Both the position numbers and the translations under genes were made by a program. DNA of 39,711 nt from a phage. Location: sequence record PZ379184.1. One strand, written 5' to 3'. This document shows, piece by piece, positions 1-38,970 of the stretch; position 1 is the stretch's first letter, and the number at the start of each line of letters is the position of its first letter. The notes below the pieces were generated by a model. The model had not been told where the DNA came from, did no database searches, and saw nothing but the letters and a program-made list of their open reading frames with translations.

Positions 1-51
1 AGAACCTCAAGTCTCCCCATAGGCCCTCTTTCAGTCCAGACAAAGGCCCTA
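1..51. repeat. Partial left copy of the direct terminal repeat; identical to 39558-39608
   Basis: Exact 51-bp match between window start and 39558-39608. Downstream sequence to about 170 resembles the T7 terminal-repeat region. Confidence 0.8.
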
Positions 52-174
52 CCCCAGTCTATCATAAGGCTGGACCGATGGTCAAGACGTTAGGTCAACG
101 ATAGGTCTAGGCTATGGCTTAGGGAAGGACGATAGGTTGGGACTATTGGTCTTCTTTGAGTCTCTATCTGTATA

Positions 175-297
175 ACCATAAGTCACAACCATAGGTCACA
201 GCCTACCTCTCACAACCATAAGTCATAACCTACAGTCTCACTAACCTACAGTCTCAACCATAAGACACCAACACCTACAGTCATAGACCTACAGTTA
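175..297. repeat. Array of about 9 short direct repeats (CCTACAGTC / CCATAAGTC), analogous to T7 ACCTAAAG repeats next to the terminal repeat
   Basis: Recurring 9-mer at 12-20 bp spacing, read directly; similar motifs recur at 39469-39507. Confidence 0.7.
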
Positions 298-546
298 ATA
301 GACACAAAGCTATAGACTTGAGGTCTAAGACATGTTAGTCAAAGACTATATCCTCTTACACCATGGGGCCGACGATAGCTTAATCAATATTATTTCGAAT
401 TACCCATTGACTATAGGTCCAGACTATGGCCTAATAGCTTCCGTCAACACGACACGGCAACAACCGGATAGTGAAGACGCCGGTCCGGTCCGGTTAAGTA
501 GTCAGCCTGTAAGACATACGAACAACAGGCAACCGACAGAAAGTAG

Positions 547-576
547 TTGACAGGCAGTAACGACTTAAAGTAATAT
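547..576 (+). promoter_or_regulatory. Host sigma70 early promoter (A1-like): TTGACA, 18-nt spacer, TAATAT
   Basis: Consensus -35 and near-consensus -10 upstream of the early genes, at the position where T7 has A1-A3. Confidence 0.55.
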
Positions 577-695
577 GTACCACATCGAAACAACGGTGAT
601 GACCAACACTGAATGGTCTACCTGAAGTCCTCTGACTGAAGGGAATGCTCTTTAACAATCTGGATAAACTCTTAATGTGCGCCGATAGCGGCTAA

Positions 696-749
696 CTACA
701 GGGCCTTTGAGTCTACATCTGAAGGCCCTGACTGATAGTCACTAACTTA
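696..749 (+). promoter_or_regulatory. Intergenic hairpin element (R0.3-like RNase III site candidate); 9-bp stem CAGGGCCTT/AAGGCCCTG then CTGACTGATAGTCACTAAC
   Basis: Perfect inverted repeat 699-707/722-730. Flanking CTCTTTAACAATCTGG (642-657) matches the T7 R0.3 region as recalled. Related copies at 1018-1065 and 1748-1790. Confidence 0.5.
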
Positions 750-762
750 AAGGATGGACACT

Positions 763-1008
763 ATGAAACACTTAAGCACAATCACTAATCGCAATGAAGT
801 ATTCGTGAACACTAAAGGTTATGCTTGGATTCAGCTTAAAGAGATGACAGGAGCGCGTCACCGTGTGGTAGTGCGCAAGGTATCAAGCAAGCAGTTCAGC
901 AACTACAGCGTCGATACTGTGCGTATAGACAACGAGACATACCTGATAGACTCGCAGATAACCGTGAGTCCTACAGTGGGCGTCTCAGCTCCTTATTTCG
1001 CTAACTGA
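763..1008 (+). CDS. Hypothetical early protein, first gene of the early operon
   Basis: ORF with SD-like AAAGGATGG 9 nt upstream of ATG 763 (alternative ATG 754). No homolog recognised; no T7 gene lies upstream of 0.3. Confidence 0.6.
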   Translation: MKHLSTITNRNEVFVNTKGYAWIQLKEMTGARHRVVVRKVSSKQFSNYSVDTVRIDNETYLIDSQITVSPTVGVSAPYFAN

Positions 1009-1091
1009 GAGTGATTAACTACAGGTCGTTAGACTGATAGCGGCCTGACTGATAGTCACTAACACATAATTAACTTTGAGAGGATATAACT

Positions 1092-1595
1092 ATGGAACGT
1101 AATGCTAACGCATACTATGAGCTGCTGGCTGCAACCGTTGAGGCATTTATCGAGCGTATTCAGTACGACCACCTGACTCAAGATGACGACTACAGCGCTG
1201 CGCTGCATGAGGTCGTAGACGGTCAGGTTCCACACTATTACCACGAGATTTTTACGGTGATGGCTGCTGATGGTATAGACAACGAGTTCGAAGACTCTGG
1301 GATGATACCTGAAACCAAGGACGTAACGCGTATCCTACAAGCTCGCATCTATGAGGCACTTTATAACGACGTGTCTAATAGCTTGGATGTAGTCTGGTTT
1401 GAGGATGAAGAGGCAGACGAAGAGGATGAATATTGGGTAGTTGACGCTAAAACAGGCGCAATAATTGTGCAAGCTGTAGCTCTTGAGGTCGCTACTGCAT
1501 GTGCCAAGGTCAACTATGTGATAGGTCGCCACCTTCAGGTGGAAGACATCAATGATAACGTAGTGTTTGACCCTGCTGCTGAGGACTGCGAGTGA
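1092..1595 (+). CDS. 0.3: Ocr-like DNA-mimic anti-restriction protein (T7 gp0.3 homolog) with a C-terminal extension of about 45 aa
   Basis: VPHYYHEIFTVMAADGIDNEFEDSGMIPETKDVTRILQARIYEAL aligns closely with recalled T7 Ocr; acidic tail; 167 aa versus 117 aa in T7. Confidence 0.85.
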   Translation: MERNANAYYELLAATVEAFIERIQYDHLTQDDDYSAALHEVVDGQVPHYYHEIFTVMAADGIDNEFEDSGMIPETKDVTRILQARIYEALYNDVSNSLDVVWFEDEEADEEDEYWVVDAKTGAIIVQAVALEVATACAKVNYVIGRHLQVEDINDNVVFDPAAEDCE

Positions 1596-1744
1596 TGGTA
1601 ACTTATGGCCTCTGCCAGCACCACGTCACTAACGCCCGGCTTATGGTCAAGACCGGGCAGTTAAACCACGATGCGACTATGCGTCACCTGAAAGCGGTCT
1701 ACGAGGGCCGCAAGCGTATACACGACAGTTTACACGCTAAGTGA
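1595..1744 (+). CDS. Hypothetical small early protein (49 aa)
   Basis: ATG overlaps the Ocr stop (ATGA coupling); ends just before the next intergenic element. Below the ORF-track cutoff. Confidence 0.4.
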   Translation: MVTYGLCQHHVTNARLMVKTGQLNHDATMRHLKAVYEGRKRIHDSLHAK

Positions 1745-1807
1745 CAGACTACAGGTCATCAATGCTGGTGGCCTGACTGATAGTCATTAACAACTGAGAG
1801 GGAAGAT

Positions 1808-2035
1808 ATGAACACAATCACTGGTGCCATAACCAAAGGTTTTCGAGCAATTTTCGGTGAAACGCAAGAAGTATGCACCAATCATAAATTCGTACTTTCT
1901 TGCGTAGCAGGTGACGAGTTTGACGGGTTCGATAAACTGGTGGTTTGCGACCATTGCGGACAAGAGGCTATCCAACACTCAAACGGTAAATTTGAATTAA
2001 TAGACGATAGCCTTACAGAAGGAGACGGCGAGTAA
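1808..2035 (+). CDS. Hypothetical early protein (75 aa) with cysteine/histidine cluster; possible small zinc-binding protein
   Basis: SD GAGAGGGA before ATG; contains C..H, C..C, CDHC spacing. Confidence 0.6.
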   Translation: MNTITGAITKGFRAIFGETQEVCTNHKFVLSCVAGDEFDGFDKLVVCDHCGQEAIQHSNGKFELIDDSLTEGDGE

Positions 2036-2167
2036 CCTAAATAAACAGGAGAGAACCAAATCATAGCTTTACCATAACACTGACGTGATGGTACTGAGTG
2101 ATAGACGAGAGGTCATCGACTGATAGGTGGCCTCAAAGATTACCACTTAAATTGATAGAGGTTAACT

Positions 2168-2257
2168 ATGAGTGTTGGACATTGGGTCTGCCTAGCGCCA
2201 GTTGTCTGGATGATAGGCTATGGGTTATACGACTGTATTAAACGGAAATCACTATGA
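2168..2257 (+). CDS. Hypothetical small hydrophobic peptide (29 aa)
   Basis: SD AGAGG before ATG 2168; hydrophobic core WVCLAPVVWMIGYGLY; stop overlaps the next ATG. Confidence 0.35.
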   Translation: MSVGHWVCLAPVVWMIGYGLYDCIKRKSL

Positions 2258-2451
2258 GTATCGAACTATTGATAGCCATAGGCTATGGACTTATCGCCTA
2301 CATGCTGATGAGAGACATCAACAAGGCAAGTAAAGTCTACAGATTCAACTATGTACGTCGGGGCCGCTGGACTGTACGTCAACCTAACGGACGATTCCTG
2401 CGCAATTTAGCGAACGTCTGGGATATAGCAACTCTTGGGAGCAAACTGTAA
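2254..2451 (+). CDS. Hypothetical early protein (65 aa), N-terminal transmembrane helix and basic C-terminus
   Basis: ORF coupled to neighbours by ATGA/TAATG overlaps. Confidence 0.55.
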   Translation: MSIELLIAIGYGLIAYMLMRDINKASKVYRFNYVRRGRWTVRQPNGRFLRNLANVWDIATLGSKL

Positions 2452-2777
2452 TGAACAAGTCATACGGGATTAATCTGGTACACTCTATGGACGCAGAAAT
2501 GAACATGTTAAGCCTACTGGCTACCGGGTATCGTCACGGAACGTCAAGTCACTCCGCACGTCAACAGCAGGAGCGGGACCGGGTACTGCAAGCAAGACTC
2601 CGGGCTGAGGGCCATAAGTCCGAACTGATGTGTCTGGCGTATGGTGGACGACCAATCACCGACGATGGTAAACTTCTGGTATCAGGCTGGAAGGCGATAG
2701 ACCAACGGTCAACCATCAAGCACACGACTCATGGTGACTTCAGTCATCTCCACGCTAACCCGCTGATATGCAAGTAA
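2451..2777 (+). CDS. Hypothetical early protein (108 aa) at the position of the T7 gp0.7 kinase, unrelated to it
   Basis: ORF immediately before the RNAP gene; far too short for a protein kinase. Confidence 0.55.
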   Translation: MNKSYGINLVHSMDAEMNMLSLLATGYRHGTSSHSARQQQERDRVLQARLRAEGHKSELMCLAYGGRPITDDGKLLVSGWKAIDQRSTIKHTTHGDFSHLHANPLICK

Positions 2778-2782
2778 TTCTG

Positions 2783-2805
2783 ACTTAACTATCACTATAG
2801 GACTC
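2783..2805 (+). promoter_or_regulatory. Phage RNAP promoter directly upstream of the RNAP gene (TTAACTATCACTATAGGAC)
   Basis: Matches the consensus of the other ten phage promoters in the window. Confidence 0.65.
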
Positions 2806-2874
2806 AAGGTCTAAGACTCCAAGTGAAAGACCAAAGAGACTTTAAGTGAAAGACTAATAACAAGGACTTTAAGT

Positions 2875-5556
2875 ATGAGCGTCATCTCTATTGATAAACA
2901 CGACTTCTCTGATGTGTCGAACGCCATTGAGCCGTTTAACCTGCTGGCCGACCACTACGGGCAAGACCTTGCAGTCAAACAGCTTCAGCTTGAGCATGAG
3001 GCATATACAGAAGGCGAGCGACGTTTCATCAAGAACCTTGAGCGCCAGACCGAGCGCGGGGAACTGGCAGACAATCAGGTCGCCAAGCCTTTGATGCAGA
3101 CTCTGGTCCCTAAGATTGCGCAAGCCGTCAGGGAGTGGCACGAAGGCCTAGACGGGAAGCTGTCAACCTCGCGTCCTAGCGTAGCGTTCACCATGTTGAG
3201 CACTGAAGAGAAGGCCGTAAAGGACCGCTCTATGCGCATCCCCTGTGAGTCCGCTGCGGTTATCATACTGAAGGTCATACTCTCCAAGCTGGTCAAGCCT
3301 GAAGGGATACCGATTACACCGATGGCCTCCGCGATAGGTCGCACACTTGAGGACGAAATCCGCTTCGGTCGCATCCGTGACAAAGAGAAGGAGCACTTCA
3401 AGAAGGCGATAGCTGAGAACCTGAACAAGCGAGCTGGGGCATCCTACAAGAAAGCATACATGCAAGCGGTCGAGGCGTCCATGCTGGAGCAAGGCCAACT
3501 GGAAGATGCATGGGGGACTTGGAGTCCTACAGAGGCTGTCCACGTTGGCATCAAGATGCTCGAGATTGTCATCCAGTCAACACAACTGGTCGAGCTTAAG
3601 CGGTACGGTGCTGGTAATGCAGCGGCTGACGTAGAGATGGCCCACCTGTCAGACTTCTGGGTCAAGAAGATGGCACAACGAGGATTCAGCCTTGCGGGTA
3701 TCGCTCCAGTCTACCAGCCTTGCGTCGTTCCACCTAAGCCGTGGACTGGTGTCGTAGGTGGTGGGTACTGGGCCAAAGGTCGCAGACCGTTACCATTGAT
3801 TCGCTTAGGGTCTAAGTCTGCGGTAGCACGTTATGAAGACGTATACATGCCTGAAGTCTATGACGCTGTGAACATCATTCAGAATACACCTTGGAAAGTT
3901 AACAAGAAGGTATTGGACGTGGTGAACATGGTCGAGAAGCTGAACAACACGCCTATTGATGACATCCCTCAGTTGGAACCGCTGAAGCCTGAGGACTATG
4001 CTGGTGAAACCGAGGAGGAACTCAAGGCATGGAAGAAGGCTGCTGCTGGTATCTATCGCCGCGAGAAGGCCAGACAGTCACGCAGATTGTCCATGAGTTT
4101 CATCGTATCACAGGCCAACAAGTTCTCACAGTTTAAGGCCATCTGGTTCCCGTACAACATGGATTGGCGAGGTCGTGTCTACGCTGTCCCGATGTTCAAC
4201 CCTCAGGGTAACGACATGCAGAAGGGTCTACTGACTCTGGCGGTCGGAAAGCCTATCGGGGCGGATGGTTTCAAATGGCTTAAAGTCCACACCGCCAACT
4301 GCGCGGGTGTCGATAAGGTAACCTTTGAGGAGCGTATCAAATGGGTGGAAGACAATCACGAGAACATTCTGGCAGCAGCCAAATCACCGATGGACAGCAT
4401 CGAGTGGTGGGGGAGTATGGACAGCCCCTTCTGCTTCCTAGCGGCTTGCTTCGAGTATTCTGGGGTGATGAACCATGGCTTGACCTACAATTGCTCACTT
4501 CCGATTGCCTTCGACGGCTCGTGTTCGGGGATTCAGCACTTCAGCGCGATGCTGAGGGACCACGTAGGCGGACATGCAGTGAACTTAACGCCGTCTGGTC
4601 AGGTGCAGGACATCTACCGTATAGTCTCAGACCGTGTGTCAGACCAGTTGAAAGAGCTATTACTGAGCGGTACGGACGACGAGCTGGTGACCGTAGAGGA
4701 CAAGAAGACTGGGGAAATCAGCGAACGCCTGAAGCTTGGGACCAAGAGTCTTGCGCGTCAGTGGCTGCAATTCGGTATGTCTCGCTCGGTCACTAAGCGC
4801 TCGGTCATGACTCTGGCCTACGGGTCGAAAGAGTATGGGTTCGCCGACCAAGTGTTCGAAGACACCGTGATGCCAGCGATTGACTCCGGTAAGGGAGCAA
4901 TGTTCACCGAGCCAAGCCAAGCGTCTCGCTTCATGGCTAAGATGATTTGGGAAGCTGTGAGTGTGACAGTAGTTGCTGCGGTTGACGCGATGAAGTGGCT
5001 TCAAGGTGCCGCCAAGCTGCTGGCTGCTGAAGTGAAGGACAAGAAGACTGGTGAAATCCTGAAGCCATGCCTTCCGGTACACTGGGTCACACCTGATGGG
5101 TTCCCGGTCTGGCAGGAATACCGCAAGAAGGATACCACTCGTCTGAACCTGATGTTCTTAGGGTCCTTCAACCTTCAACCTACGGTCAACAAAGGTACGA
5201 AGAAAGAGCTGGACAAGCACAAGCAGGAGTCAGGCATTAGCCCGAACTTCGTCCACTCACAAGATGGTAGCCACCTCCGCAAGACTGTAGTCCACACTCA
5301 CCGAAAGTATGGCGTGATGTCATTCGCAGTGATTCACGATAGCTTCGGGACCATCCCGGCTGACGCTGAGTATCTGTTCCGTGGCGTCCGTGAGACGATG
5401 GTAGAGACTTACCGCGATAACGATGTGCTGCTTGACTTCTACGAGCAGTTTGAATACCAGCTTCATGAAAGTCAGCGCGACAAGTTGCCTGAGCTTCCGA
5501 AGAAAGGTAAACTGAATATCGAAGACATCTTGTCTTCAGACTTTGCATTCGCTTAA
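2875..5556 (+). CDS. 1: DNA-directed RNA polymerase, single subunit (T7 gp1 homolog, 893 aa)
   Basis: Collinear similarity to recalled T7 RNAP (FSDxxxxIEPFNLLADHYG, CVVPPKPWTG, WFPYNMDWRGRVYAV, HDSFGT, C-terminal SDFAFA). Confidence 0.97.
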   Translation: MSVISIDKHDFSDVSNAIEPFNLLADHYGQDLAVKQLQLEHEAYTEGERRFIKNLERQTERGELADNQVAKPLMQTLVPKIAQAVREWHEGLDGKLSTSRPSVAFTMLSTEEKAVKDRSMRIPCESAAVIILKVILSKLVKPEGIPITPMASAIGRTLEDEIRFGRIRDKEKEHFKKAIAENLNKRAGASYKKAYMQAVEASMLEQGQLEDAWGTWSPTEAVHVGIKMLEIVIQSTQLVELKRYGAGNAAADVEMAHLSDFWVKKMAQRGFSLAGIAPVYQPCVVPPKPWTGVVGGGYWAKGRRPLPLIRLGSKSAVARYEDVYMPEVYDAVNIIQNTPWKVNKKVLDVVNMVEKLNNTPIDDIPQLEPLKPEDYAGETEEELKAWKKAAAGIYRREKARQSRRLSMSFIVSQANKFSQFKAIWFPYNMDWRGRVYAVPMFNPQGNDMQKGLLTLAVGKPIGADGFKWLKVHTANCAGVDKVTFEERIKWVEDNHENILAAAKSPMDSIEWWGSMDSPFCFLAACFEYSGVMNHGLTYNCSLPIAFDGSCSGIQHFSAMLRDHVGGHAVNLTPSGQVQDIYRIVSDRVSDQLKELLLSGTDDELVTVEDKKTGEISERLKLGTKSLARQWLQFGMSRSVTKRSVMTLAYGSKEYGFADQVFEDTVMPAIDSGKGAMFTEPSQASRFMAKMIWEAVSVTVVAAVDAMKWLQGAAKLLAAEVKDKKTGEILKPCLPVHWVTPDGFPVWQEYRKKDTTRLNLMFLGSFNLQPTVNKGTKKELDKHKQESGISPNFVHSQDGSHLRKTVVHTHRKYGVMSFAVIHDSFGTIPADAEYLFRGVRETMVETYRDNDVLLDFYEQFEYQLHESQRDKLPELPKKGKLNIEDILSSDFAFA

Positions 5557-5571
5557 CAACAGGAGAAGTAT

Positions 5572-5802
5572 ATGTCAATGAAACTTGTAGCACACAACAG
5601 GGTATTCAACGATGGGTCGGGACGTTGCCATGTAGAGCTGACTTATAAGGATTTAATCATTCTCCGAGACAGATTACAGTCGGGTGTGACTGGGTGGATT
5701 CAACCTAACGAGTACAACCTTATAGCTTCGATTGATGAAGTTCTTAACGCGTGGATGGAAGACGAGCGCATTCAGTATCCGTCATTCCCTCTAATTAGAT
5801 AA
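5572..5802 (+). CDS. Hypothetical protein (76 aa)
   Basis: SD AGGAG before ATG; no counterpart recognised in T7 between genes 1 and 1.1. Confidence 0.55.
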   Translation: MSMKLVAHNRVFNDGSGRCHVELTYKDLIILRDRLQSGVTGWIQPNEYNLIASIDEVLNAWMEDERIQYPSFPLIR

Positions 5803-5812
5803 GGAGAGAGTT

Positions 5813-6028
5813 ATGAAATTTGCACACAAGCATACTGGCGTTAATGGTGGGACTCAAATCGTGACCGTAACAGAACACAACGGCAAGGGTCTGGTGAAGA
5901 CCACGGTCATCCCTACCGAGATGTCCAAGCAGCTTAACATCCCGTTCAAGACTCTTGTATATCTTGTGGAATCCAGCCACGAGAAATACCTGAAAGACGC
6001 AGTGACCAAGCTGGAGCAGACCAAATGA
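5813..6028 (+). CDS. Hypothetical protein (71 aa)
   Basis: SD AAGGAGAG before ATG; no homolog recognised. Confidence 0.55.
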   Translation: MKFAHKHTGVNGGTQIVTVTEHNGKGLVKTTVIPTEMSKQLNIPFKTLVYLVESSHEKYLKDAVTKLEQTK

Positions 6029-6102
6029 CAGACCTACAGTTACTGGCCTTGTGGCTGGGAGCACTCGCAGTATTCACTTTAATCCAAAGCAGAAGAGGTT
6101 AA

Positions 6103-6125
6103 CCTAAACTATCACTATAGGATTA
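6103..6125 (+). promoter_or_regulatory. Phage RNAP promoter (phi1.1 position)
   Basis: AAACTATCACTATAGGATTAG; consensus match. Confidence 0.75.
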
Positions 6126-6165
6126 GACTCAAGGTCATGACTCAAAGTCGTGGCCTTCATGATTA
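6125..6165 (+). promoter_or_regulatory. RNase III processing site candidate (R1.1-like): AGACTCAAGGTCAT..GTGGCCTTCATGATTA
   Basis: Resembles recalled T7 R1.1 (ACTCAAGGTCAT...GTGGCCTTTATGATTA); same element recurs at 13224-13261 and 36548-36588. Confidence 0.65.
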
Positions 6166-6195
6166 ACCCTAACTCATTCAATCAGGAGCTACACC

Positions 6196-6375
6196 ATGTA
6201 TCAGAACACTATCAACTTCGAGCGAATCCGTGAACGTCAGCAGACTGAAGATTATATTCCGAAGGGACGCAAGCTGAACAAGACCAAGCGTGGTGGAGGT
6301 GTCAAGGGTGCTTTCCGTAACGCTGAAGGCAAAGACTCTATGGTCAACCAAGAGAAGTATTTCGTAGGAGCGTAA
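6196..6375 (+). CDS. 1.1: gp1.1-like small basic protein (59 aa)
   Basis: Contains KGRKLNKTKR, matching the recalled T7 gp1.1 motif; below the ORF-track cutoff. Confidence 0.65.
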   Translation: MYQNTINFERIRERQQTEDYIPKGRKLNKTKRGGGVKGAFRNAEGKDSMVNQEKYFVGA

Positions 6376-6378
6376 GAC

Positions 6379-6666
6379 ATGAGCATGTTCTCAAGAGCGC
6401 ATAGCGGCAACCTGAACACTCTTCGTACAGCCATCCACAACTGGCAGACCGAGACGGACTACAATGCAGAGGTCAGCACTTGGTTTGACCAAGTGATGCA
6501 CAGGACTTGTATCAAAGCTGTAATAGTCCACGTTCACACACGAGAGGTCCTCATTGAGAAGGACTTCACGGAGTACCCGAATATCCACGACGAAGATGTG
6601 CAGACCGTAGCGGTTGCCACTTGGTTTAACAAACAGTTCAACGACTACACTGGTCGATTCCTTTAA
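6379..6666 (+). CDS. 1.2: gp1.2-like protein (in T7, inhibitor of host dGTPase)
   Basis: Shares SGNL near the N-terminus and HDEDV with recalled T7 gp1.2; position between 1.1 and ligase. Confidence 0.65.
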   Translation: MSMFSRAHSGNLNTLRTAIHNWQTETDYNAEVSTWFDQVMHRTCIKAVIVHVHTREVLIEKDFTEYPNIHDEDVQTVAVATWFNKQFNDYTGRFL

Positions 6667-6683
6667 TTCTGGAGACATTAACG

Positions 6684-7769
6684 ATGATAACTATTAAAAC
6701 TAACCCGCACCGCGCTGTAGATTACTCTGAGTCTGGCGTTAAGAAGGCTCTGGAAGCTGCCGGGTCGCTGGAAGCTGAAGTGAAGTACGATGGCGTCCGG
6801 TTGAATCTTCTGGTCTTCCCTACTGGTGAGACTCAATGGTTGAGTCGTGAGTCTAAACCTCTCCCAGCTCTTGAGTGGCTGTCAGTCCTTACCAACATCG
6901 ACAACATCGTTGATGACCAGCAAAAAGCTAGCGACTGGCGGTGGTTCCTTAAACAGGCTGGCTACGAAGGTACGGGCCTGATGATTGACGGTGAGGTAAT
7001 GGTTCCTGCAACCGACTTCAACACTTCCTCAGGTCTAGTCCGTACCATGTGGTCAGACACTAAGAACTACGCTTGGAATGGCAACCCCGATGCTGACATC
7101 GACACCAAGAAGAAGCATAAGGTCCCTTTCCATCTGGCAACCGACCACATCCGCGTGGTTGTCTACGGTATCGTTGACCTTAACGTCATCAACGACCCGA
7201 AAGCCGAAGGTCCTATCCATAGCGTCACACGCCTGAAGGCCGAAGCTATCGTCCCTCTCCTCCAGAAATACTTCCCGGAAATCGACTGGGTTCTGTCTGA
7301 GTCACACACGGTCTATGACCTTGAGTCGCTCAACTCCCTGTACGAAGAGAAGCGTCTGGAAGGACACGAGGGTCTGGTGGTCAAGGACCCACTGGGTAAA
7401 TACAAGCGCGGTAAGAAGTCAGGAATGTGGAAGATGAAGCCTGAGGAGACCATCGACGGGACCGTATGTGGCCTCGTGTGGGGGACTCCTGGTAAGGCCA
7501 ACGAAGGCAAGGTCATTGGCTTTGAGGTACTGCTGGAGGACGGCATGGTAGTGAATGCGTGCGGACTGACTGAGGAGCAGAAGGATGAGTTCACCGCTTC
7601 CGTTCTAAACTGGCGTAAGGGGTTAGGCTCAAGCACTATTTATGGAAACCCGTTTTCTGGTAATCAGGTGGAAGTCCTATTCATGGAGCGCTTCCCTGAT
7701 GGCTCCCTTCGTCATCCCAGCTTCAAGTGCTGGCGTGGAACGGAAGACAATCCAACCGTTAAGAGCTAA
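6684..7769 (+). CDS. 1.3: ATP-dependent DNA ligase (T7 gp1.3 homolog)
   Basis: Adenylation motif KYDGVR; 361 aa versus 359 aa in T7; gene order. Confidence 0.92.
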   Translation: MITIKTNPHRAVDYSESGVKKALEAAGSLEAEVKYDGVRLNLLVFPTGETQWLSRESKPLPALEWLSVLTNIDNIVDDQQKASDWRWFLKQAGYEGTGLMIDGEVMVPATDFNTSSGLVRTMWSDTKNYAWNGNPDADIDTKKKHKVPFHLATDHIRVVVYGIVDLNVINDPKAEGPIHSVTRLKAEAIVPLLQKYFPEIDWVLSESHTVYDLESLNSLYEEKRLEGHEGLVVKDPLGKYKRGKKSGMWKMKPEETIDGTVCGLVWGTPGKANEGKVIGFEVLLEDGMVVNACGLTEEQKDEFTASVLNWRKGLGSSTIYGNPFSGNQVEVLFMERFPDGSLRHPSFKCWRGTEDNPTVKS

Positions 7770-7778
7770 CTAAACGTC

Positions 7779-7815
7779 AACCCAGTGGTCTTCGGACTGC
7801 TGGGTTTCTTTGCTT
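7779..7815 (+). terminator. Rho-independent terminator after the ligase gene (TE-like)
   Basis: GC stem CCCAGTGGTC/GACTGCTGGG with TTCG loop followed by TTTCTTTGCTTTG. Confidence 0.75.
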
Positions 7816-7852
7816 TGTGCTAGAAAGCTATCGTCTGGGCCACCAGCATGAC

Positions 7853-7875
7853 ACTAAGCTATCACTATAGGAAAA
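7853..7875 (+). promoter_or_regulatory. Phage RNAP promoter
   Basis: AAGCTATCACTATAGGAAAAC; consensus match. Confidence 0.7.
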
Positions 7876-7901
7876 CCATAACTCGACCTAAGGAGGCCGA
7901 T

Positions 7902-8159
7902 ATGTTTAAGAACTTAATGTTCAATCGTTATACCAGTACATTCCACCTGTCTCACAACCCATTCGCTTGCATTAAGCGTAACGAGAAGCTGGGCTACTTC
8001 GGGAAGGCCGTTAAGCTGTCACCTACAGTCTTCGCTCTGATTACTCCGAGCAAAGCTGAAGAGGCTCTCCAGAAGCGTGAGTCCAACGTACCTGTGGTCT
8101 ACACTAAGTGGCCTCGCGTTCGTCTGTTCGTTGAGGTAATAAAGGAGCTAACAGTATGA
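7902..8159 (+). CDS. Hypothetical protein (85 aa) at the T7 gene 1.6 position
   Basis: SD AAGGAGG 6 nt before ATG 7902. The track ORF from 7848 would include the promoter, so the internal ATG is preferred. Confidence 0.6.
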   Translation: MFKNLMFNRYTSTFHLSHNPFACIKRNEKLGYFGKAVKLSPTVFALITPSKAEEALQKRESNVPVVYTKWPRVRLFVEVIKELTV

Positions 8160-8629
8160 ACGCACTTGAACAAGAGATTATCATTAAGTTGGTAGATAAT
8201 AACGAAGGTCGCCCAGATGATTTGAATGGCTGCGGTATTTTCTGCCATAATGTCCCTTGCTACCTCTGCCCTGTAAATATCAATAAAAAGATAACCTTAG
8301 GTGAAATCCGAGCGATGGACATACGTAAGCCTAAACTGGAGAAACCAGAGGTAACTACTACAGACGACCAGCCTTACGCTAAGGCTATCGACGACGTACG
8401 CAAGCCGTCCCACTATCAGGTCTTTGACGGTGTGGAGTCCATTGAGATTATCGCTCGGTCCCTGACTGTCAGCGAGTTCCGTGGTTTCTGCATGGGTAAC
8501 GTCCTGAAGTATCGACTCCGAGCTGGTAAGAAGTCCGAGCTGGCTACTATGGAGAAGGACCTAAACAAAGCGGCCTTCTATCAGGAGCTGTTCGACCTGC
8601 ATAAAGGTAAGTGCTATGCTGCCGAGTGA
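8156..8629 (+). CDS. 1.7: gp1.7-like nucleotide (dGMP/dTMP) kinase
   Basis: IIKLVDNNEGRPDDLNGCGIFCHNVPCYLCP, KITLGEIRAMD and GNVLKYRLRAGKKSEL match recalled T7 gp1.7. Confidence 0.85.
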   Translation: MNALEQEIIIKLVDNNEGRPDDLNGCGIFCHNVPCYLCPVNINKKITLGEIRAMDIRKPKLEKPEVTTTDDQPYAKAIDDVRKPSHYQVFDGVESIEIIARSLTVSEFRGFCMGNVLKYRLRAGKKSELATMEKDLNKAAFYQELFDLHKGKCYAAE

Positions 8630-8711
8630 GTGGTGCCGGGAGATGTATGAGAAGACTCTCAACCCGGACTACATTACGCTATACAACCAATGGAAGGAGC
8701 GAGGTTTATGA
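8616..8711 (+). CDS. Small protein (31 aa), gp1.8 position
   Basis: Short ORF overlapping the ends of genes 1.7 and 2, both by ATGA-type coupling. Confidence 0.4.
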
Positions 8712-8866
8712 CTGAGGTTGAGAAGAAATACATCGTGGAGCTTGAGGGTCGCGTCCAGTCCTTCGAGGTTCCTGTGTACGCAAAGTCTCTTGAAGAGGCT
8801 ACCATGAAGTCCCAAGAGTATGAGGACGCTGGGTTTGTGGTCGGACGGATTCGTCCTGAGACCTAA
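8708..8866 (+). CDS. 2: gp2-like inhibitor of host RNA polymerase (52 aa)
   Basis: [14 protein letters not shown]...[10 protein letters not shown] resembles recalled T7 gp2 (SFEVPIYAETLDEA...AGFEVTRVRP). Confidence 0.75.
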
Positions 8867-8884
8867 ACTATCACTGTAGGACAG
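8862..8884 (+). promoter_or_regulatory. Phage RNAP promoter variant (CTGTAGG instead of CTATAGG)
   Basis: TAAACTATCACTGTAGGACAG; one mismatch at -3. Confidence 0.6.
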
Positions 8885-8924
8885 ACGTCAAGTTCGTAAC
8901 TTTTAAATTAGGAGATTTACACCA

Positions 8925-9623
8925 ATGGCTAAAGAGCAACTGAAGACTTTCACCACTCCGGTAGCTGGTATCGTTGAGCCTTACGCATGGCTGAACAGAG
9001 CAGACACCAAGTTTAACGAGCGTGGTGAGCATAAGGTTAACCTGACATTCAACCTGAGCGACCCGAAGGTCCGTAAGATGATTGATGTCTTACAGAAGAT
9101 TCACGACGATGCGTATGCGAAAGCACTTGCAGACCACGAGAAGAACCCACCTCAGGTTCAGCGTGGCAAGAAGCCTATTGAACCACGAGAAGGCGACATG
9201 CCGTGGATTGAGAATGGTGACGGTACTGTTACCCTGAAGTTAAAATGCTTTGCGTCTTACCTTAAAGATGGCAAGTCCGAGCCTATCGTATTACGGTTCT
9301 ACGACACCGATGCTAAACGCATCCGTGACGTCCCGAATATTGGCGCTGGGTCTAAGCTGAAGGTCAAGTTTAAAGTCCTGCCGTTCAAGTGGAACGCTGC
9401 GACGGGTGCAAGCGTTAAGCTCCAGCTTGAGTCCTGCCTTCTGGTAGAACTGAAGGAGTGGAAAGGTGATGGTAATGGTGGCGATGGTGGCTGGGGCGAT
9501 GATGAAGACCTCGGTACTGGCTACAAAGCGTCAACCGATGGTGACTTCGGGTCTGATGACTTCGGTGACGATGGTTCCGAAGGTGGGGATGACTCCAACT
9601 CTGGTGGCGATTACGACTTCTAA
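8925..9623 (+). CDS. 2.5: Single-stranded DNA-binding protein (T7 gp2.5 homolog, 232 aa)
   Basis: Same length as T7 gp2.5; GKKPIEPREGDMPW, VPNIGAGSKLKVKFKVLPFKWNAATGASVKLQLES and acidic C-terminal tail ending DF. Confidence 0.92.
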   Translation: MAKEQLKTFTTPVAGIVEPYAWLNRADTKFNERGEHKVNLTFNLSDPKVRKMIDVLQKIHDDAYAKALADHEKNPPQVQRGKKPIEPREGDMPWIENGDGTVTLKLKCFASYLKDGKSEPIVLRFYDTDAKRIRDVPNIGAGSKLKVKFKVLPFKWNAATGASVKLQLESCLLVELKEWKGDGNGGDGGWGDDEDLGTGYKASTDGDFGSDDFGDDGSEGGDDSNSGGDYDF

Positions 9624-10075: not shown

Positions 10076-10545
10076 TGACTCAGAAATATAGACTTAAGGT
10101 TAGTTGCTGCGGGTGGCCTAAAGGTACTATCGTTACGAAATGTGCGAAAGACCCGTGTACAGCATCTGGAATTGTTCTGGTGGAATCCACTGAGCGTGGC
10201 CACTTCAAGCACGGAGCAGCAGGTTATAACACTCAGCCTGACGGTATGTGGGGGGCGTGGGTTGCAAAAGCACATCTTGAGGAAATCGTAGAGGATAAAC
10301 CTCAAGTCATGCCAGCTTCGAGCGTACCGCCTGTGACTGTGAAGCGTGAAGTCCTGACCATCAACAAGATTGGTGTAGGGCAGACGTTCATCGTCCACGG
10401 TAAGCCTGACGAAGTGTACGTGAAGATTAGCAACTCTCACGTCTTCAACCATAAGTTGCTCCAGATGCACACGACTGACGCACATCGCTTCCAGTCACAT
10501 CTGAATCTAGTGGTCGTAGAATTGGTGGTGTACAATGGTAAGTAA
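10075..10545 (+). CDS. Hypothetical protein (about 156 aa) inserted between endonuclease I and lysozyme
   Basis: SD AAAGGAG 7 nt before ATG 10075 (track ORF starts at an upstream GTG, 10072); overlaps the lysozyme start by 11 nt. Confidence 0.6.
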   Translation: MTQKYRLKVSCCGWPKGTIVTKCAKDPCTASGIVLVESTERGHFKHGAAGYNTQPDGMWGAWVAKAHLEEIVEDKPQVMPASSVPPVTVKREVLTINKIGVGQTFIVHGKPDEVYVKISNSHVFNHKLLQMHTTDAHRFQSHLNLVVVELVVYNGK

Positions 10546-10993
10546 GGTACAGTTCAACCCACGGTCCCGGACTGACGCTATCTTCGTTCACTGTTCGGCT
10601 ACCAAGCCAGATATGGACATCGGGGTAGAGACCATCCGTATGTGGCACAAGCAGCAAGGATGGCTGGACGTAGGCTACCACTTTATCATCAAACGTGATG
10701 GCACTGTGGAAGAGGGTCGCCCGGTCAATGTCGTAGGGTCACACGTTAAGGACTGGAACTCCAAGTCCGTAGGCGTCTGCCTTGTAGGTGGAATTGACGC
10801 TAAGGGCAAGTTTGAAGCTAACTTCACTCCGGCCCAGATGAACTCACTGCGCAACAAGCTGGCTGACCTGAAGGCCCTGTATCCTCAGGCAGAAATAAAA
10901 GCACACCATGATGTAGCACCTAAGGCGTGTCCAAGTTTCGACTTGCAGCGCTGGCTATCTACCAATGAACTGGTAACTTCCGACCGTGGTTAA
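10535..10993 (+). CDS. 3.5: N-acetylmuramoyl-L-alanine amidase / T7 lysozyme (gp3.5 homolog)
   Basis: VQF..R..TDAIFVHCSATKP, WLDVGYHFIIKRDGTVEEGR, HHDVAPKACPSFDL and C-terminal ELVTSDRG match recalled T7 gp3.5. Confidence 0.93.
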   Translation: MVSKVQFNPRSRTDAIFVHCSATKPDMDIGVETIRMWHKQQGWLDVGYHFIIKRDGTVEEGRPVNVVGSHVKDWNSKSVGVCLVGGIDAKGKFEANFTPAQMNSLRNKLADLKALYPQAEIKAHHDVAPKACPSFDLQRWLSTNELVTSDRG

Positions 10994-11017: not shown

Positions 11018-11233
11018 ATGATTAAACTTATCGAATTTCTTGGTCGTCTGGTGGTGCGTGGTTATCGTCGTGCTGCGGTTATGGAACGAAAGGTAGAAAA
11101 GAAGACTGCTGACAGTGCGGCTGATGCAGCTGCTCTGGCTGACAAGCTGACCATCGCGTCACTGGAAGCTGGCATGAAGGCACGTCAAGCTGACACCAAA
11201 GCTGACCAGTTGGCTCAGTTCTTCAAAGCCTAA
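11018..11233 (+). CDS. Hypothetical small protein (71 aa), N-terminal hydrophobic, alanine-rich
   Basis: SD AAAGGAG before ATG; resembles a small T7-family protein that I cannot assign to a gene number with certainty. Confidence 0.55.
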   Translation: MIKLIEFLGRLVVRGYRRAAVMERKVEKKTADSAADAAALADKLTIASLEAGMKARQADTKADQLAQFFKA

Positions 11234-11252
11234 ACTATCACCTTAGGGATGG
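11230..11252 (+). promoter_or_regulatory. Degenerate phage promoter-like sequence followed by hairpin GGGACA..TGTCCC
   Basis: TAAACTATCACCTTAGGGAT has two mismatches in the -4/-3 region; hairpin 11251-11270 then TTTGTTCGC. Confidence 0.35.
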
Positions 11253-17748: not shown

Positions 17749-17771
17749 ACTAAACTATCACTATAGGGACT
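17749..17771 (+). promoter_or_regulatory. Phage RNAP promoter (phi6.5 position)
   Basis: TAAACTATCACTATAGGGACT. Confidence 0.8.
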
Positions 17772-19023: not shown

Positions 19024-20592
19024 ATGGCTGAACGTGAAGGGTTCGCTGCTGAAGGCGCTAAGTCAGTTTATGATAGATTGAAGAACGGACGACAGCCTTA
19101 CGAGACCCGCGCACAGAACTGTGCTGCTGTCACTATCCCGTCACTGTTTCCTAAGGAATCAGACAACTCGTCTACTGAATATACCACTCCGTGGCAAGCT
19201 GTAGGTGCTCGCTGCTTGAACAACTTGGCTGCAAAGCTGATGTTGGCGTTATTCCCTCAGTCACCGTGGATGCGACTGACAGTCTCCGAATATGAGGCAA
19301 AGACCTTGAGTCAGGACTCAGAGGCCGCTGCTCGTGTTGACGAAGGGCTGGCTATGGTCGAGCGGGTGTTGATGGCCTACATGGAGACTAACAGTTTCCG
19401 TGTCCCATTGTTCGAAGCTCTGAAGCAGCTTATAGTCTCCGGTAACTGTCTGCTCTACATTCCAGAGCCTGAACAGGGAACCTACAGTCCTATGCGAATG
19501 TACCGCTTAGTGTCATACGTTGTTCAACGTGATGCGTTCGGTAACATCTTGCAGATTGTGACTCTCGACAAGGTAGCGTTTAGTGCTCTACCGGAGGACG
19601 TGAAGTCTCAACTCAACGCAGATGACTATGAGCCTGACACCGAGCTGGAAGTGTATACGCACATCTACCGTCAGGACGACGAGTATCTACGCTACGAGGA
19701 AGTGGAAGGCATTGAGGTAGCAGGGACCGATGGTTCTTACCCACTGACTGCCTGTCCATACATCCCGGTACGAATGGTTCGACTGGATGGTGAAGACTAC
19801 GGTCGTTCTTACTGCGAGGAGTATCTGGGAGACCTCAACTCGCTGGAGACGATTACAGAAGCTATCACCAAAATGGCTAAGGTAGCCTCCAAGGTGGTGG
19901 GCCTCGTTAACCCGAACGGTATCACACAACCTCGTCGTCTGAACAAGGCGGCTACAGGTGAGTTCGTGGCTGGTCGCGTTGAGGACATCAACTTCCTGCA
20001 ACTGACGAAAGGTCAGGACTTTACGATTGCTAAATCGGTAGCTGACGCTATCGAGCAACGTTTAGGCTGGGCCTTCCTTCTTAATAGTGCCGTTCAGCGT
20101 AATGCCGAGCGAGTCACTGCTGAAGAGATTCGTTATGTTGCTGGCGAACTGGAGGCGACCTTAGGTGGCGTGTACTCAGTACAGTCACAAGAGCTTCAGT
20201 TACCTATCGTCCGTGTGCTGATGAACCAGCTTCAGTCTGCTGGCATGATTCCTGACCTTCCGAAAGAAGCAGTAGAGCCTACTGTCTCCACAGGTCTTGA
20301 AGCGTTAGGTCGTGGTCAGGACTTGGAGAAGCTGACTCAGGCGGTTAACATGATGACTGGTCTTCAGCCACTATCTCAGGACCCGGACATCAACTTGCCG
20401 ACCCTTAAGCTACGACTCCTGAACGCTCTGGGTATCGACACCGCTGGCCTACTCCTGACGCAAGACGAGAAGATTCAGCGCATGGCTGAGCAGTCGTCTC
20501 AACAGGCAGTTGTCCAAGGTGCTGGCGCTGCTGGTGCTAACATGGGCGCTGCTGTAGGTCAGGGAGCTGGTGAGGACATGGCTCAAGCCTAA
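19024..20592 (+). CDS. 8: Head-to-tail connector (portal) protein (T7 gp8 homolog)
   Basis: Extensive collinear similarity to recalled T7 gp8 (YETRAQNCA, PWQAVGARCLNNLAAKLMLALFP, MVRLDGEDYGRSYCEEYLGDL, GITQPRRL). Confidence 0.95.
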   Translation: MAEREGFAAEGAKSVYDRLKNGRQPYETRAQNCAAVTIPSLFPKESDNSSTEYTTPWQAVGARCLNNLAAKLMLALFPQSPWMRLTVSEYEAKTLSQDSEAAARVDEGLAMVERVLMAYMETNSFRVPLFEALKQLIVSGNCLLYIPEPEQGTYSPMRMYRLVSYVVQRDAFGNILQIVTLDKVAFSALPEDVKSQLNADDYEPDTELEVYTHIYRQDDEYLRYEEVEGIEVAGTDGSYPLTACPYIPVRMVRLDGEDYGRSYCEEYLGDLNSLETITEAITKMAKVASKVVGLVNPNGITQPRRLNKAATGEFVAGRVEDINFLQLTKGQDFTIAKSVADAIEQRLGWAFLLNSAVQRNAERVTAEEIRYVAGELEATLGGVYSVQSQELQLPIVRVLMNQLQSAGMIPDLPKEAVEPTVSTGLEALGRGQDLEKLTQAVNMMTGLQPLSQDPDINLPTLKLRLLNALGIDTAGLLLTQDEKIQRMAEQSSQQAVVQGAGAAGANMGAAVGQGAGEDMAQA

Positions 20593-20610
20593 ACTATCAC
20601 TATAGGAACA
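20588..20610 (+). promoter_or_regulatory. Phage RNAP promoter (phi9 position)
   Basis: TAAACTATCACTATAGGAACA. Confidence 0.75.
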
Positions 20611-21575: not shown

Positions 21576-21598
21576 ACTAAACTATCACTATAGGGAGA
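21576..21598 (+). promoter_or_regulatory. Phage RNAP promoter (phi10 position), full consensus TAAACTATCACTATAGGGAGA
   Basis: Only copy with GGGAGA initiating sequence; precedes the major capsid gene. Confidence 0.85.
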
Positions 21599-26357: not shown

Positions 26358-26380
26358 CCTTAACTATCACTATAGGGACT
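26358..26380 (+). promoter_or_regulatory. Phage RNAP promoter (phi13 position) within a 12-bp inverted repeat
   Basis: TTAACTATCACTATAGGGACT; flanked by AAGGGCCTATAG (26341-26352) and CTATAGGCCCTT (26379-26390). Confidence 0.8.
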
Positions 26381-32700: not shown

Positions 32701-33638
32701 TGTCTGACATCGTGGAGCATAGCCTGACTGGCAGTAAGCGTAAGTTCGATGACCGCTGGCTGAAGACCGCTGGTATCTCTGACGAGCAGTGGAAGGGCAT
32801 TAAGTCCCTAATCCGTGAGTCAGTGACTCGTGGTCCAGACGGGAAGTATACCATCAAGGATAAGAAGGCATTCAGTCAGGACCCAAGGGCTATGGACCTG
32901 TGGCGTATGGGTGATACCATCGCTGACGAAACGTTACTCCGTCCTCATAAGCTGTCCAACATGGACGCCAAGGCTTATGGCCCACTCGCTAAGACTGTCC
33001 TTCAGTTTAAGAACTTCGTCATCAAGTCCATCAATGGGCGAACCATGCGTACCTTCTATAACGCCACGAAGAACAACCGAGCGATTGACGCTGCACTATC
33101 GACCGTGATGTCTATGGGTCTGGCTGGTATCTACTACATGGCTCAGGCGCACGTCAAGGCTTATGCTATGCAGGATGGTCGAGACCGAGATTATCTCAAG
33201 CAAGCTCTGGACCCAACGATGATTGGCTATGCGGCCCTGTCCCGTAGTTCACATCTGGGTGGACCACTTGGGGTAGCTAACATTCTAGGTGGCATCGCTG
33301 GGTATGAGGACACTAAGATGCTCCGTTCGTCTATCCTACCTCGTTCTCCTACAGAGAAGCCTGAACGTGCCATCGCGTATGGTGCAGCTACAAGTGACCC
33401 TGTGATGAATGTTGTTGGTAACTTCTTGGAGCAGGTTCCAGCTTTCGGATATGCTGCTAACGTTGGCGCTTCGGCTTACAACTTGGCTGGCTACCTCAAG
33501 GCTGATACTCGTGTTAACGAGCGTGACTACATGACCGGGATGTATAATACGTTCCGTGAACTGGTTCCGAACGACCCAATTACCCAGAAACTATTGCTTG
33601 GAACGTTTGAGGAGCAGGGTATCCACATCAAGGACTAA
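29751..33638 (+). CDS. 16: Internal virion protein D (T7 gp16 homolog) with a divergent N-terminal domain
   Basis: Residues after about 200 are collinear with recalled T7 gp16 (SVAGGDA, RLEARETARN, DLVRSPTGMQSGASGK, ILTGRARR, C-terminal VPNDP). The N-terminal 130 aa (GIRNNNPGNIR...) do not match the T7 SLT domain. Start at ATG 29751 after SD AAGGAG. Confidence 0.9.
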   Translation: MATRGIRNNNPGNIRVSKDQWEGMTGDDGAFVTFDSPESGVRALGKNLLSYGRQGYDSIEKIINRWAPPNENDTKAYIDSVVAATGIPATQSLDLSNPDTLSALAQAISFHETGSRYNPEVYQKGVERALNGISPKTPPVSANVFDALTEGLKAKPKVALGENLPTAAGLNIEGQAPEAPNESFGEMFYKSTGETMQEREDRSTWFGFDSATEAEVKNSMVGVAIRAGQTEDSLDVIGDVFNPTRWNNHKWSREELDQIRNAGVLPQYYGVITGGSPQNLTELINLALENQKLDQEKAKAGTGAQLAAGVIGAGVDPLTYVPIAGQVGKGAKLVNKMFTVAAQSGALAGVSEMARTSVAGGDAHVAEAILGGALFGGGMTAIADGLGRALGRNTNEFAGPATRLEARETARNVDGQDLSRLPIQEGEQTFSHQGVKFADVPNEPGSVRLEDGSILIGENPLNPKTRQVFDEVIEPERAAAGVNLGGLTEIGLKLLRSENPEIRGVAADLVRSPTGMQSGASGKIGTTASDVFERLRAVDHRFYNDIDDAVTEALKDPYFQTAFWRDSGAFRQDIYQRVSMAIEDGSGNLKAELTPGELKVYDLLKNQFDAKREMMENPAMFGRPDAQPIFPGSRFKGTYVPHVYSKQMKELYIKELGSPEALQEAIKKSWLTSYASRPEVKKRVDEALLEADPTLTPEGLAAAVDKYANDKAYGISHTEQFERSSVMEENINGLVGLENNSFLEARNLFDSDMSIVLPNGQTFSVNNLREWDMDKIVPAYNRRVNGDIAIMAGTGKTTKDMKDLVETMMNKAGDDGKLKGEVSTLRDTLKILTGRARRDGADDAAFATVMRTMTDLSFFAKNAYMGVQNLTEIGGMLARGNVRAMLHGVPMFRDLAFRNKKVGASEIKDLHNVLFGKELDDSIRPSKQDVIDRLRSYSDLGRGAATALGTAKYYTGELAVRSPFTKVLNGTTNYLLDAGRQGFLSDIVEHSLTGSKRKFDDRWLKTAGISDEQWKGIKSLIRESVTRGPDGKYTIKDKKAFSQDPRAMDLWRMGDTIADETLLRPHKLSNMDAKAYGPLAKTVLQFKNFVIKSINGRTMRTFYNATKNNRAIDAALSTVMSMGLAGIYYMAQAHVKAYAMQDGRDRDYLKQALDPTMIGYAALSRSSHLGGPLGVANILGGIAGYEDTKMLRSSILPRSPTEKPERAIAYGAATSDPVMNVVGNFLEQVPAFGYAANVGASAYNLAGYLKADTRVNERDYMTGMYNTFRELVPNDPITQKLLLGTFEEQGIHIKD

Positions 33639-33656
33639 ACTATCACTATAGGAAAC
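33634..33656 (+). promoter_or_regulatory. Phage RNAP promoter (phi17 position)
   Basis: TAAACTATCACTATAGGAAAC. Confidence 0.8.
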
Positions 33657-36542: not shown

Positions 36543-36547
36543 GTGTT

Positions 36548-36588
36548 AGACTCAAGGTCATTACTATATGTAGTGGCCTTTATGGTTA
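36548..36588 (+). promoter_or_regulatory. RNase III processing site candidate (R18.5-like)
   Basis: AGACTCAAGGTCATTACTATATGTAGTGGCCTTTATGGTTA; third copy of the conserved element. Confidence 0.65.
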
Positions 36589-36643
36589 ACACTAACTAGT
36601 GGAGGCAACTCTACGTGAAATCTGATAAACCGGGAGGGCAACT

Positions 36644-37093
36644 ATGCTCGAATTTTTAAAGAGAGCGGCTCCGTGGTTACTTGCAGCAGTGATGTTTGCT
36701 GGTGGCTACCACACCGCTAACAATAAGTGGGAGGCTAAGGTCAATGCAGAATACACCTCGAATCTTAAGGCATCGGAAGATACAAGGCTTGCTGTCCAAG
36801 CTGAAGTCAACAAAGTGTCCAAACGGTTTCAGGACGAAATGTCCTCGTTGGAAGGCAGCACTGATAGGATTATTGCTGACCTTCAGTCTGACAATAAGCG
36901 GCTGCGCATCCGAGTCAAACCAACGAGTGGAACCACGCAAAGTGACGGTCGATGCGTCATTGATGGTTACGCCGAACTTGACGAACGAGATGCTAAACGT
37001 CTTATCGCCATCGGAGTGAAAGGAGACAAGTGGATTAAGGCCCTTCAGGACACTGTGAGAGCCTTGCAGCAAGATAAGGAGGTGACGCATTGA
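36644..37093 (+). CDS. 18.5: i-spanin (Rz-like, T7 gp18.5 homolog)
   Basis: N-terminal transmembrane segment [11 protein letters not shown]; 149 aa; encloses the Rz1-like ORF in the +1 frame. Confidence 0.85.
36744..37019 (+). CDS. 18.7: o-spanin lipoprotein (Rz1-like, gp18.7 position), embedded in the Rz gene
   Basis: Signal peptide plus lipobox [12 protein letters not shown]; start assumed at the Met of MQNTPRIL (track ORF opens at 36696). Confidence 0.75.
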   Translation: MQNTPRILRHRKIQGLLSKLKSTKCPNGFRTKCPRWKAALIGLLLTFSLTISGCASESNQRVEPRKVTVDASLMVTPNLTNEMLNVLSPSE

Positions 37094-38853: not shown

Positions 38854-38947
38854 CTGAATGAATAACTATAGGCGAAAACTGAGTTAATAAGCAGTTAGTA
38901 ACCTATAGTTACTACCAGTCTAACCTACTGTTTTACAAGGAGTTTGG

Positions 38948-38970
38948 ACTTAACTATCACTATAGGGAAG
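38948..38970 (+). promoter_or_regulatory. Phage RNAP promoter near the right end (phiOR position)
   Basis: TTAACTATCACTATAGGGAAG. Confidence 0.8.

Follow-up and report, generated by a model that had tools for sequence, protein, structure and literature searches.

A conserved cognate promoter directly before the RNA polymerase gene of a K1F-like phage and its likely part in polymerase self-transcription

The window analysed here, 39,711 nucleotides of sequence record PZ379184.1, is the complete genome of a phage of the genus Kayfunavirus (K1F-like, Studiervirinae; T7 family). We conclude that its positions 2783-2805, referred to below as phi1, probably form a functional promoter of the middle class (class II-like) that is used by the phage's own RNA polymerase (RNAP), and that no promoter of this kind lies further left in the mature genome. 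Four aspects evident from sequence comparison underlie this view, namely the identity of the element, its conservation, its co-evolution with the RNAP and the lack of a terminator between promoter and gene. The element itself is already known, being annotated in phage EcoDS1, and the concept of feedback has been published for other Autographiviridae; with the site annotated and the idea in print, the observation opens no new question. What we consider most worth keeping is a joint switch of promoter and RNAP specificity loop in two related loci and the apparent exclusivity of two promoter arrangements, one close to gene 1 and one at the left end of the genome, the position of T7 phiOL.

A consensus K1F-type promoter before gene 1

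Over positions 1-8000 the window is ~94% identical to several Escherichia phages of Kayfunavirus, and its genes follow the order of T7: ocr (1092-1595), small early genes of unknown function, gene 1, a dGTPase inhibitor, ligase (6684-7769), a nucleotide kinase, a gp2-type gene, gp2.5 and a gp3.5-type gene. Gene 1 (2875-5556, plus strand; phrog_414, E = 0) encodes a single-subunit RNAP of 893 amino acids, which is 99.7% identical to the RNAP of IME177 and ~95% identical to K1F-type RNAPs, and whose specificity loop, RLNLMFLGSFNLQPTVNK, is identical to that of K1F. The gene upstream, a gp0.38-like early gene of unknown function (2451-2777, plus strand; phrog_7066), ends with a stop codon at 2775-2777, 5 nt before phi1. 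Because this reading frame stops at 2777, phi1 is intergenic and lies entirely in the 97-nt gap between that stop codon and the RNAP start codon.

On the plus strand, phi1 covers -17 to +6 of a K1F-type phage-RNAP promoter and reads ACTTAACTATCACTATA followed by GGACTC, with a predicted +1 at G2800. The string quoted by the earlier note, the 19-mer TTAACTATCACTATAGGAC, corresponds to 2785-2803. The RNAP ATG at 2875 follows +1 by 75 nt and the end of the 19-mer by 71 nt, which agrees with the distance of about 70 nt that the note had given. When up to three mismatches are allowed, the 19-mer has 10 matches in the window, all on the plus strand, where 0.01 would be expected, and a looser search with the core alone adds an eleventh cognate site at 11234. 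A 23-nt weight matrix places these 11 sites at 30.9-37.4 bits and the next best position on either strand at 14.7 bits, while phi1 scored in leave-one-out fashion reaches 31.0 bits. It carries the exact consensus, comprising the TCACTATAGG core and the K1F-type bases ACTAT at -12 to -8. The claim of a consensus phage promoter at 2783-2805 is thus upheld by the size of the promoter set, the small chance expectation and the leave-one-out score.

All 11 cognate promoters are co-oriented with the genes and lie between genes or at gene ends. To the right of phi1, and likewise on the plus strand, they comprise a phi1.1-like site (6103-6125, start 6120) that is followed by an RNase III-type hairpin, a phi1.6-like site (7853-7875, start 7870), a phi2.5-like site (8862-8884, start 8879), the weakest match of the set (11229-11251, start 11246), a late-type site with a GGGA start (17749-17771, start 17766), a site at 20588-20610 (start 20605), a phi10-like site beginning with GGGAGA (21576-21598, start 21593), two further sites at 26358-26380 (start 26375) and 33634-33656 (start 33651), and a phiOR-like site (38948-38970, start 38965). 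The layout of the start sites mirrors the T7 map, with phi1.1, 1.6, 2.5 ... 6.5, 9, 10, 13, 17 and OR. At 2800 the initial transcript would begin with GGA, as at 6120, 7870 and 8879, the remaining early and middle promoters, and GGGA is found at the later promoters at 17766, 21593, 26375 and 38965. These two kinds of start resemble the distinction between class II and class III promoters in T7, and the non-GGG start together with the class II-like character of phi1 suggests a promoter of moderate strength.

Two further likenesses within the set deserve mention. The phi1 promoter and those starting at 38965 and 26375 share a CTTAAC variant at -15 to -10, and the upstream flank of the phiOR-like promoter resembles that of phi1. 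The likeness of the flanks and the shared variant may reflect an old duplication or an extended upstream element.

Conservation and co-change with the polymerase

We took 80 loci around RNAP homologues from IMG/VR, built a promoter consensus for each locus from its own sequence, seeded on CACT[AG][TA]AGG, and located the closest site preceding the RNAP gene; 7 loci without a usable consensus were left out of the counts, and Pasteurella phage ZA29 yielded no resolved promoter motif. Among sequences whose RNAP is at least 78% identical, 24 of 24 (the window, two K1F records and 21 IMG/VR loci) have a promoter of their own consensus before the ATG, with +1 at 75-93 nt before the aligned RNAP start. 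For the 23 sequences with an RNAP at least 87% identical, the distance from +1 to the ATG narrows to 75-81 nt. The most distant member, L016 (RNAP 78%), has its site 93 nt from the aligned start and 63 nt from the corrected ATG. A different arrangement prevails in T7-, T3- and K11/KP32-type loci, where no site lies less than 617 nt away in any of the 52 that gave a usable consensus, and the nearest cognate site typically lies 2000-4000 nt upstream of gene 1, at the phiOL position. At a larger scale, the 136-nt stretch 2745-2880 recurs in 219 INPHARED records, each covering at least 80% of it, a number that nearly equals the 221 records with an RNAP at least 80% identical.

The most telling comparison comes from two IMG/VR loci, L017 and L040, whose RNAPs are 87% identical to that of the window. 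Both loci differ little from the window in the leader and in the closing stretch of the upstream gene (9900-10003 in L017 and 9900-10003 in L040 against 2745-2877), but the promoter before gene 1 reads TTAAACCCTCACTATAGGA in these loci and CTTAACTATCACTATAGGA in the window, with the specificity bases at -12 to -8 switched from ACTAT to ACCCT (AACTATCACT to AACCCTCACT). All other promoters in L017 and L040 share the TTAAACCCTCACTATAGGA type as their consensus, and this type is T3-like (ACCCTCACTATAGG). The specificity loops differ at T7 positions 748 and 756, with changes of the N748D and N756R types (RLDLMFLGTFRLQ in L017 and L040 versus RLNLMFLGSFNLQ in the window). In L016 there is a third loop and a third consensus, GGTACACTATAGG, which is likewise present before gene 1. 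A T7 RNAP chimera given the K1F loop has been reported to be active on a promoter with the K1F bases at -12 to -7 (PMC3458549). Since the promoter was rewritten in step with the RNAP loop while its flanks were conserved, selection appears to keep the site cognate, and as far as aligned sequences can tell, L017 and L040 represent a clean natural case of promoter-polymerase co-evolution. Taken with the consensus match and the genus-wide conservation, this co-change of the specificity loop bears out the proposal that a cognate promoter fronts the phage's own RNAP gene.

Outside the genus, the Ghunavirus representative, Pseudomonas phage PCW2 (L084), has a gh-1-type promoter, TTAAAAACCCTCACTGTGGCTGCA, at 7983-8006, ~100 nt before the RNAP ATG (8103), so that proximal promoters of this kind are not confined to kayfunaviruses. 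The AAACCCTCAC core recurs in PCW2 at 4784 and marks a possible further upstream site, as judged by the core alone. A proximal promoter is absent in Dickeya phage Luksen (L085) and in Yersinia phage fPS-52 (L087, annotated).

Leader, expected circuit and alternative roles

The 75-nt leader of gene 1 (2800-2874, plus strand) contains repeated GACTYYAAGT motifs and a Shine-Dalgarno sequence, AAGGA, at 2862-2866. Its positions 2806-2877 (counted into the start codon) resemble the leader between phi1.1B and gene 1.1 of T7 (L003, 5929-6009) with a local score of 27, against 9.2 +/- 1.8 for shuffled sequences, none of which reached 27 in 1000 trials, and the two leaders end identically in AGGACTTTAAGTATG. 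Both the GGA start and the style of the leader match T7 class II units, of which phi1.1B to gene 1.1 is an example. This suggests a class II promoter-leader cassette that may have been shared or transferred between T7 phi1.1B and phi1.

The earlier note had also described a GGTCT..AGACC hairpin after the promoter. The arms exist (GGTCT at 2808-2812 and AGACC at 2828-2832, forming an inverted repeat over 2808-2832 on the plus strand), but as a structure the repeat finds no support: the 5' UTR folds at -12.7 kcal/mol (z = -0.21), with 74 of 200 shuffles equally or more stable, an alignment fold of 11 distinct homologous leaders gives a consensus of -5.3 kcal/mol with zero compensatory pairs, and the fifth stem pair, T2812-A2828, is lost in 84-nt variants of the leader. 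In T7, the gap before gene 1 holds the RNase III site R1. The leader shows no similarity to the T7 R1 region (score 7), and an Rfam scan of positions 1-9000 with E up to 1 returned zero matches. We therefore rejected the hairpin as a regulator or RNase III site on the basis of the single-sequence fold, the 11-leader fold and the comparison with T7 R1.

Elements that look more like processing sites are found elsewhere in the genome. The hairpin after the promoter at 6120, spanning 6123-6174, has z = -2.8 and aligns with the T7 RNase III site R1.1. This 52-nt element occurs a second time at 36546-36597, in a copy 85% identical to the first, which aligns with a T7 stretch within 36800-36920 that we presume may be the R18.5 RNase III site; judging by these alignments, the elements at 6123-6174 and 36546-36597 are likely RNase III processing sites. 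The sequence GGCCTGACTGATAGTCACTAAC occurs three times (718-747, 1035-1064 and 1763-1792), just upstream of the early genes starting at 754, 1092 and 1808. These copies show weak similarity to T7 R1 (score 9) and could represent 3' halves of sites at which early mRNA is processed; no such element lies just before gene 1.

Two host sigma70-type early promoters can be placed to the left of gene 1 on the plus strand, one at 407-443, homologous to the 'host RNAP promoter' of EcoDS1 at 469-505 (93.5% over 77 nt), and one at 547-585 with the layout TTGACA-18-TAATAT, homologous to EcoDS1 609-647. A strong TE-like intrinsic terminator with a 12-bp stem and a T-run follows the ligase gene (7779-7806, plus strand) and would end the host-transcribed early unit; its surroundings are 94.5% identical to the EcoDS1 region that holds the annotated TE (7668-7697). 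No terminator-like site was found on the plus strand from the left end to gene 1, nor anywhere before 6642. With host-type promoters upstream and no terminator before gene 1, host RNAP should make the first gene 1 mRNA, as in T7. The arrangement is that of an autogene, with a cognate promoter upstream of the RNAP reading frame on the same strand, no terminator between them, and an independent host-RNAP route to the first polymerase that is indicated by sequence and homology. As a side observation, a 72-aa reading frame at 332-550 (phrog_30192; gp0.1 in the K1F record AM084414) overlaps the host promoter homologue at 407-443, and either this reading frame or the promoter call may be wrong.

The sequence of events that we envisage would begin with host RNAP starting at the sigma70-type promoters at ~407-585 and reading through the early genes and gene 1 to TE at 7779-7806, yielding the first phage RNAP. 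These first molecules would then initiate at G2800 and transcribe gene 1, followed by genes 1.1-1.3 and beyond. Any initiation at this promoter means that the polymerase transcribes its own gene, and its synthesis would become self-amplifying and independent of host RNAP once the gp2-like inhibitor of the host enzyme (8690-8866, plus strand; phrog_1307, 1.6e-23) has acted. There is no cognate site left of 2783 in the window or in its linear kayfunavirus relatives, so after the gp2 block gene 1 mRNA could come from phi1 alone. In T7, the gp3.5 lysozyme inhibits the phage RNAP, preferentially at class II promoters. By analogy, the gp3.5-like amidase/lysozyme of the window (10535-10993, plus strand; phrog_822, 4.6e-81) is a plausible brake on the loop and would probably limit it later in infection. 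Self-transcription of the polymerase gene is, in our judgement, the most likely consequence of phi1 and a fairly probable one, and the supply of polymerase in K1F-like phages is probably self-sustaining once triggered. The literature that we searched yielded no kayfunavirus transcript, 5'-end, transcription-start or protein data.

A promoter to the left of any gene necessarily 'transcribes' that gene, and the benefit of phi1 may therefore lie elsewhere than in RNAP dosage; it could, for example, concern genome entry or the transcription of genes 1.1-1.3, and T7 thrives without a proximal site. One version of this argument holds that phi1 mainly substitutes for phiOL as the left-most promoter for genome entry and the earliest middle transcription, with its adjacency to gene 1 and any self-amplification being incidental. 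In linear kayfunavirus genomes phi1 is the sole cognate site to the left of gene 1, T7-, T3- and K11/KP32-type loci have a left-end site (~2000-4000 nt upstream) and none nearby, and in the sample examined the proximal and left-end arrangements look mutually exclusive. RNAP-driven genome internalisation is, moreover, established for T7 (summarised in PMC4517105). Against this, the tight distance to the ATG (75-81 nt in 23 sequences) and the conserved Shine-Dalgarno leader suggest a unit of promoter, leader and gene, the leader resembles the mRNA leader between phi1.1B and gene 1.1 in T7, and PCW2 combines its proximal promoter with the possible upstream site at 4784 (a AAACCCTCAC core only). 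We consider this explanation unlikely as the main one, and the two roles are in any case compatible.

A role in DNA replication, in which phi1 would prime or activate an origin instead of expressing gene 1, appears very improbable. The 38 nt upstream of phi1 (2745-2782) share 61% identity with those upstream of the phiOR-like promoter (38910-38947), compared with 27 +/- 10% over all promoter pairs, which favours such a role weakly; the downstream leader is A/T-rich by eye, and in T7 the promoters phi1.1A/B are tied to the primary origin and phiOL and phiOR to secondary origins. However, a specific origin signature is absent, the leader resembles a T7 mRNA leader and finishes with a good Shine-Dalgarno sequence and an ATG, and the T7 primary-origin position is occupied by the phi1.1-like promoter at 6120. 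That phi1 might be a chance match or a decaying, functionless remnant is barely conceivable and is effectively refuted by the comparative data, given the expectation of 0.01 for the 19-mer, the presence of the site in 219 records and the switch of its specificity bases with the RNAP loop while the flanks stayed unchanged. A promoter serving the polymerase's own gene thus remains our preferred reading.

Known counterparts, significance and genome ends

The closest counterpart is EcoDS1 (NC_011042), whose record annotates a 'promoter phi' at 2244-2266 directly before gene 1. Its 23-mer is identical to 2783-2805, the phage belongs to the same genus, the intergenic position is the same and the leader is identical up to the ATG, so that the window represents another isolate with no difference of substance; the record names the promoter only and attaches no functional statement. 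K1F has the phi1 site at 2479-2492. A kayfunavirus paper from 2026 lists a CTWAACTATCACTATAGG repeat at the end of the gene that precedes the RNAP gene (PMC13298934), and this repeat has the same consensus as phi1.

Beyond the genus, positive feedback has been proposed for the Pseudomonas T7-like phage LUZ100, in which a start upstream of the RNAP gene, also named phi1, was mapped by ONT-cappable-seq (PMC10134795). LUZ100 resembles the window in having a phage promoter directly before the RNAP gene, with host read-through proposed as the trigger, but it also has a MarR-like regulator, an integrase and a terminator in front, as parts of a proposed lysis/lysogeny switch, all of which the window lacks. 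No regulator or integrase was found among the early ORFs of the window, whose matches are restricted to ocr and families of unknown function, and a LUZ100-like repressor switch was rejected for this reason. By its predicted gene content, the window would work like an autogene and not like a lysogeny switch of the LUZ100 type. In the Vibrio phage phiA318, the predicted promoter phi-A8 upstream of the RNAP gene was read by the authors as autoregulation (PMC4099482). It differs from phi1 in preceding a kinase gene as well as the RNAP gene, and it belongs to an SP6/K1E-like phage with an unrelated promoter consensus and is known from prediction only.

The comparison with T7 is a matter of position. 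T7 phiOL (nt 405), like phi1, serves as a phage-RNAP promoter, precedes gene 1 and has no other promoter of its kind to its left, but it lies 2.8 kb upstream and before the host promoters, whereas phi1 is proximal to gene 1 and is neither within the first few hundred bases nor upstream of the host early promoters. In the gap before its gene 1, T7 has the E. coli minor promoter C. The earlier note had contrasted the window with T7 on the grounds that T7 gene 1 is transcribed by the host polymerase. As to position, proximal versus left end, this contrast holds; as a matter of presence or absence it was overstated, since phiOL lies upstream of the whole T7 early region and the difference is therefore one of distance and not of kind.

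Dubendorff and Studier reportedly constructed in 1991 a synthetic T7 autogene, with the T7 RNAP gene under a T7 promoter. The pairing of phi1 with gene 1 has the same circuit topology, a polymerase gene driven by its cognate promoter. The T7 autogene is engineered and needs tight repression for cloning, whereas the phi1 circuit would be natural and embedded in a lytic programme. The T7 autogene concept has since been used in PMC6395690.

If phi1 acts as we suppose, the textbook scheme of T7, in which the RNAP gene is strictly a host-transcribed early gene, would fail for the large K1F-like genus, to which many candidate phages for therapy against E. coli, Salmonella, Enterobacter and Citrobacter belong. 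Such knowledge could be used in models of infection timing and in the engineering of orthogonal expression systems of the K1F type. More speculatively, though still as a serious possibility, kayfunaviruses might have shifted their left-most phage promoter away from the genome end, the place of phiOL, into a cassette of promoter and leader joined to gene 1, turning the RNAP gene into an autocatalytic middle gene. Dependence on the site would then be so strong that every change of polymerase specificity forces it to be re-tuned, as the step from ACTAT to ACCCT in L017 and L040 would illustrate. On this reading the pairing of phi1 with gene 1 would be a natural autogene, maintained by evolution in a strictly lytic phage, and would offer a ready system for the study of promoter-polymerase co-evolution.

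Finally, some observations concern the ends of the sequence record. A short direct-repeat array of ACCATAAGTCACA and ACCTACAGTC types follows the terminal repeat at 170-300, similar to arrays near the concatemer junctions of T7-group phages, and the left-end ACCTACAGTC repeats dominated our first de novo motif search. The right end has a partial terminal repeat, a copy of no more than the first 51 nt of the left end (39558-39608), and the last 103 nt (39609-39711) are non-phage sequence. A 53-nt sequence that occurs at scattered positions on the chromosomes of 40 E. coli genomes matches positions 39608-39660 with 100% identity and is presumably the right end of phage Mu as used in MuA-transposase library kits. 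The non-phage right end thus probably entered the assembly as an artefact, derived from an adapter or a transposon.
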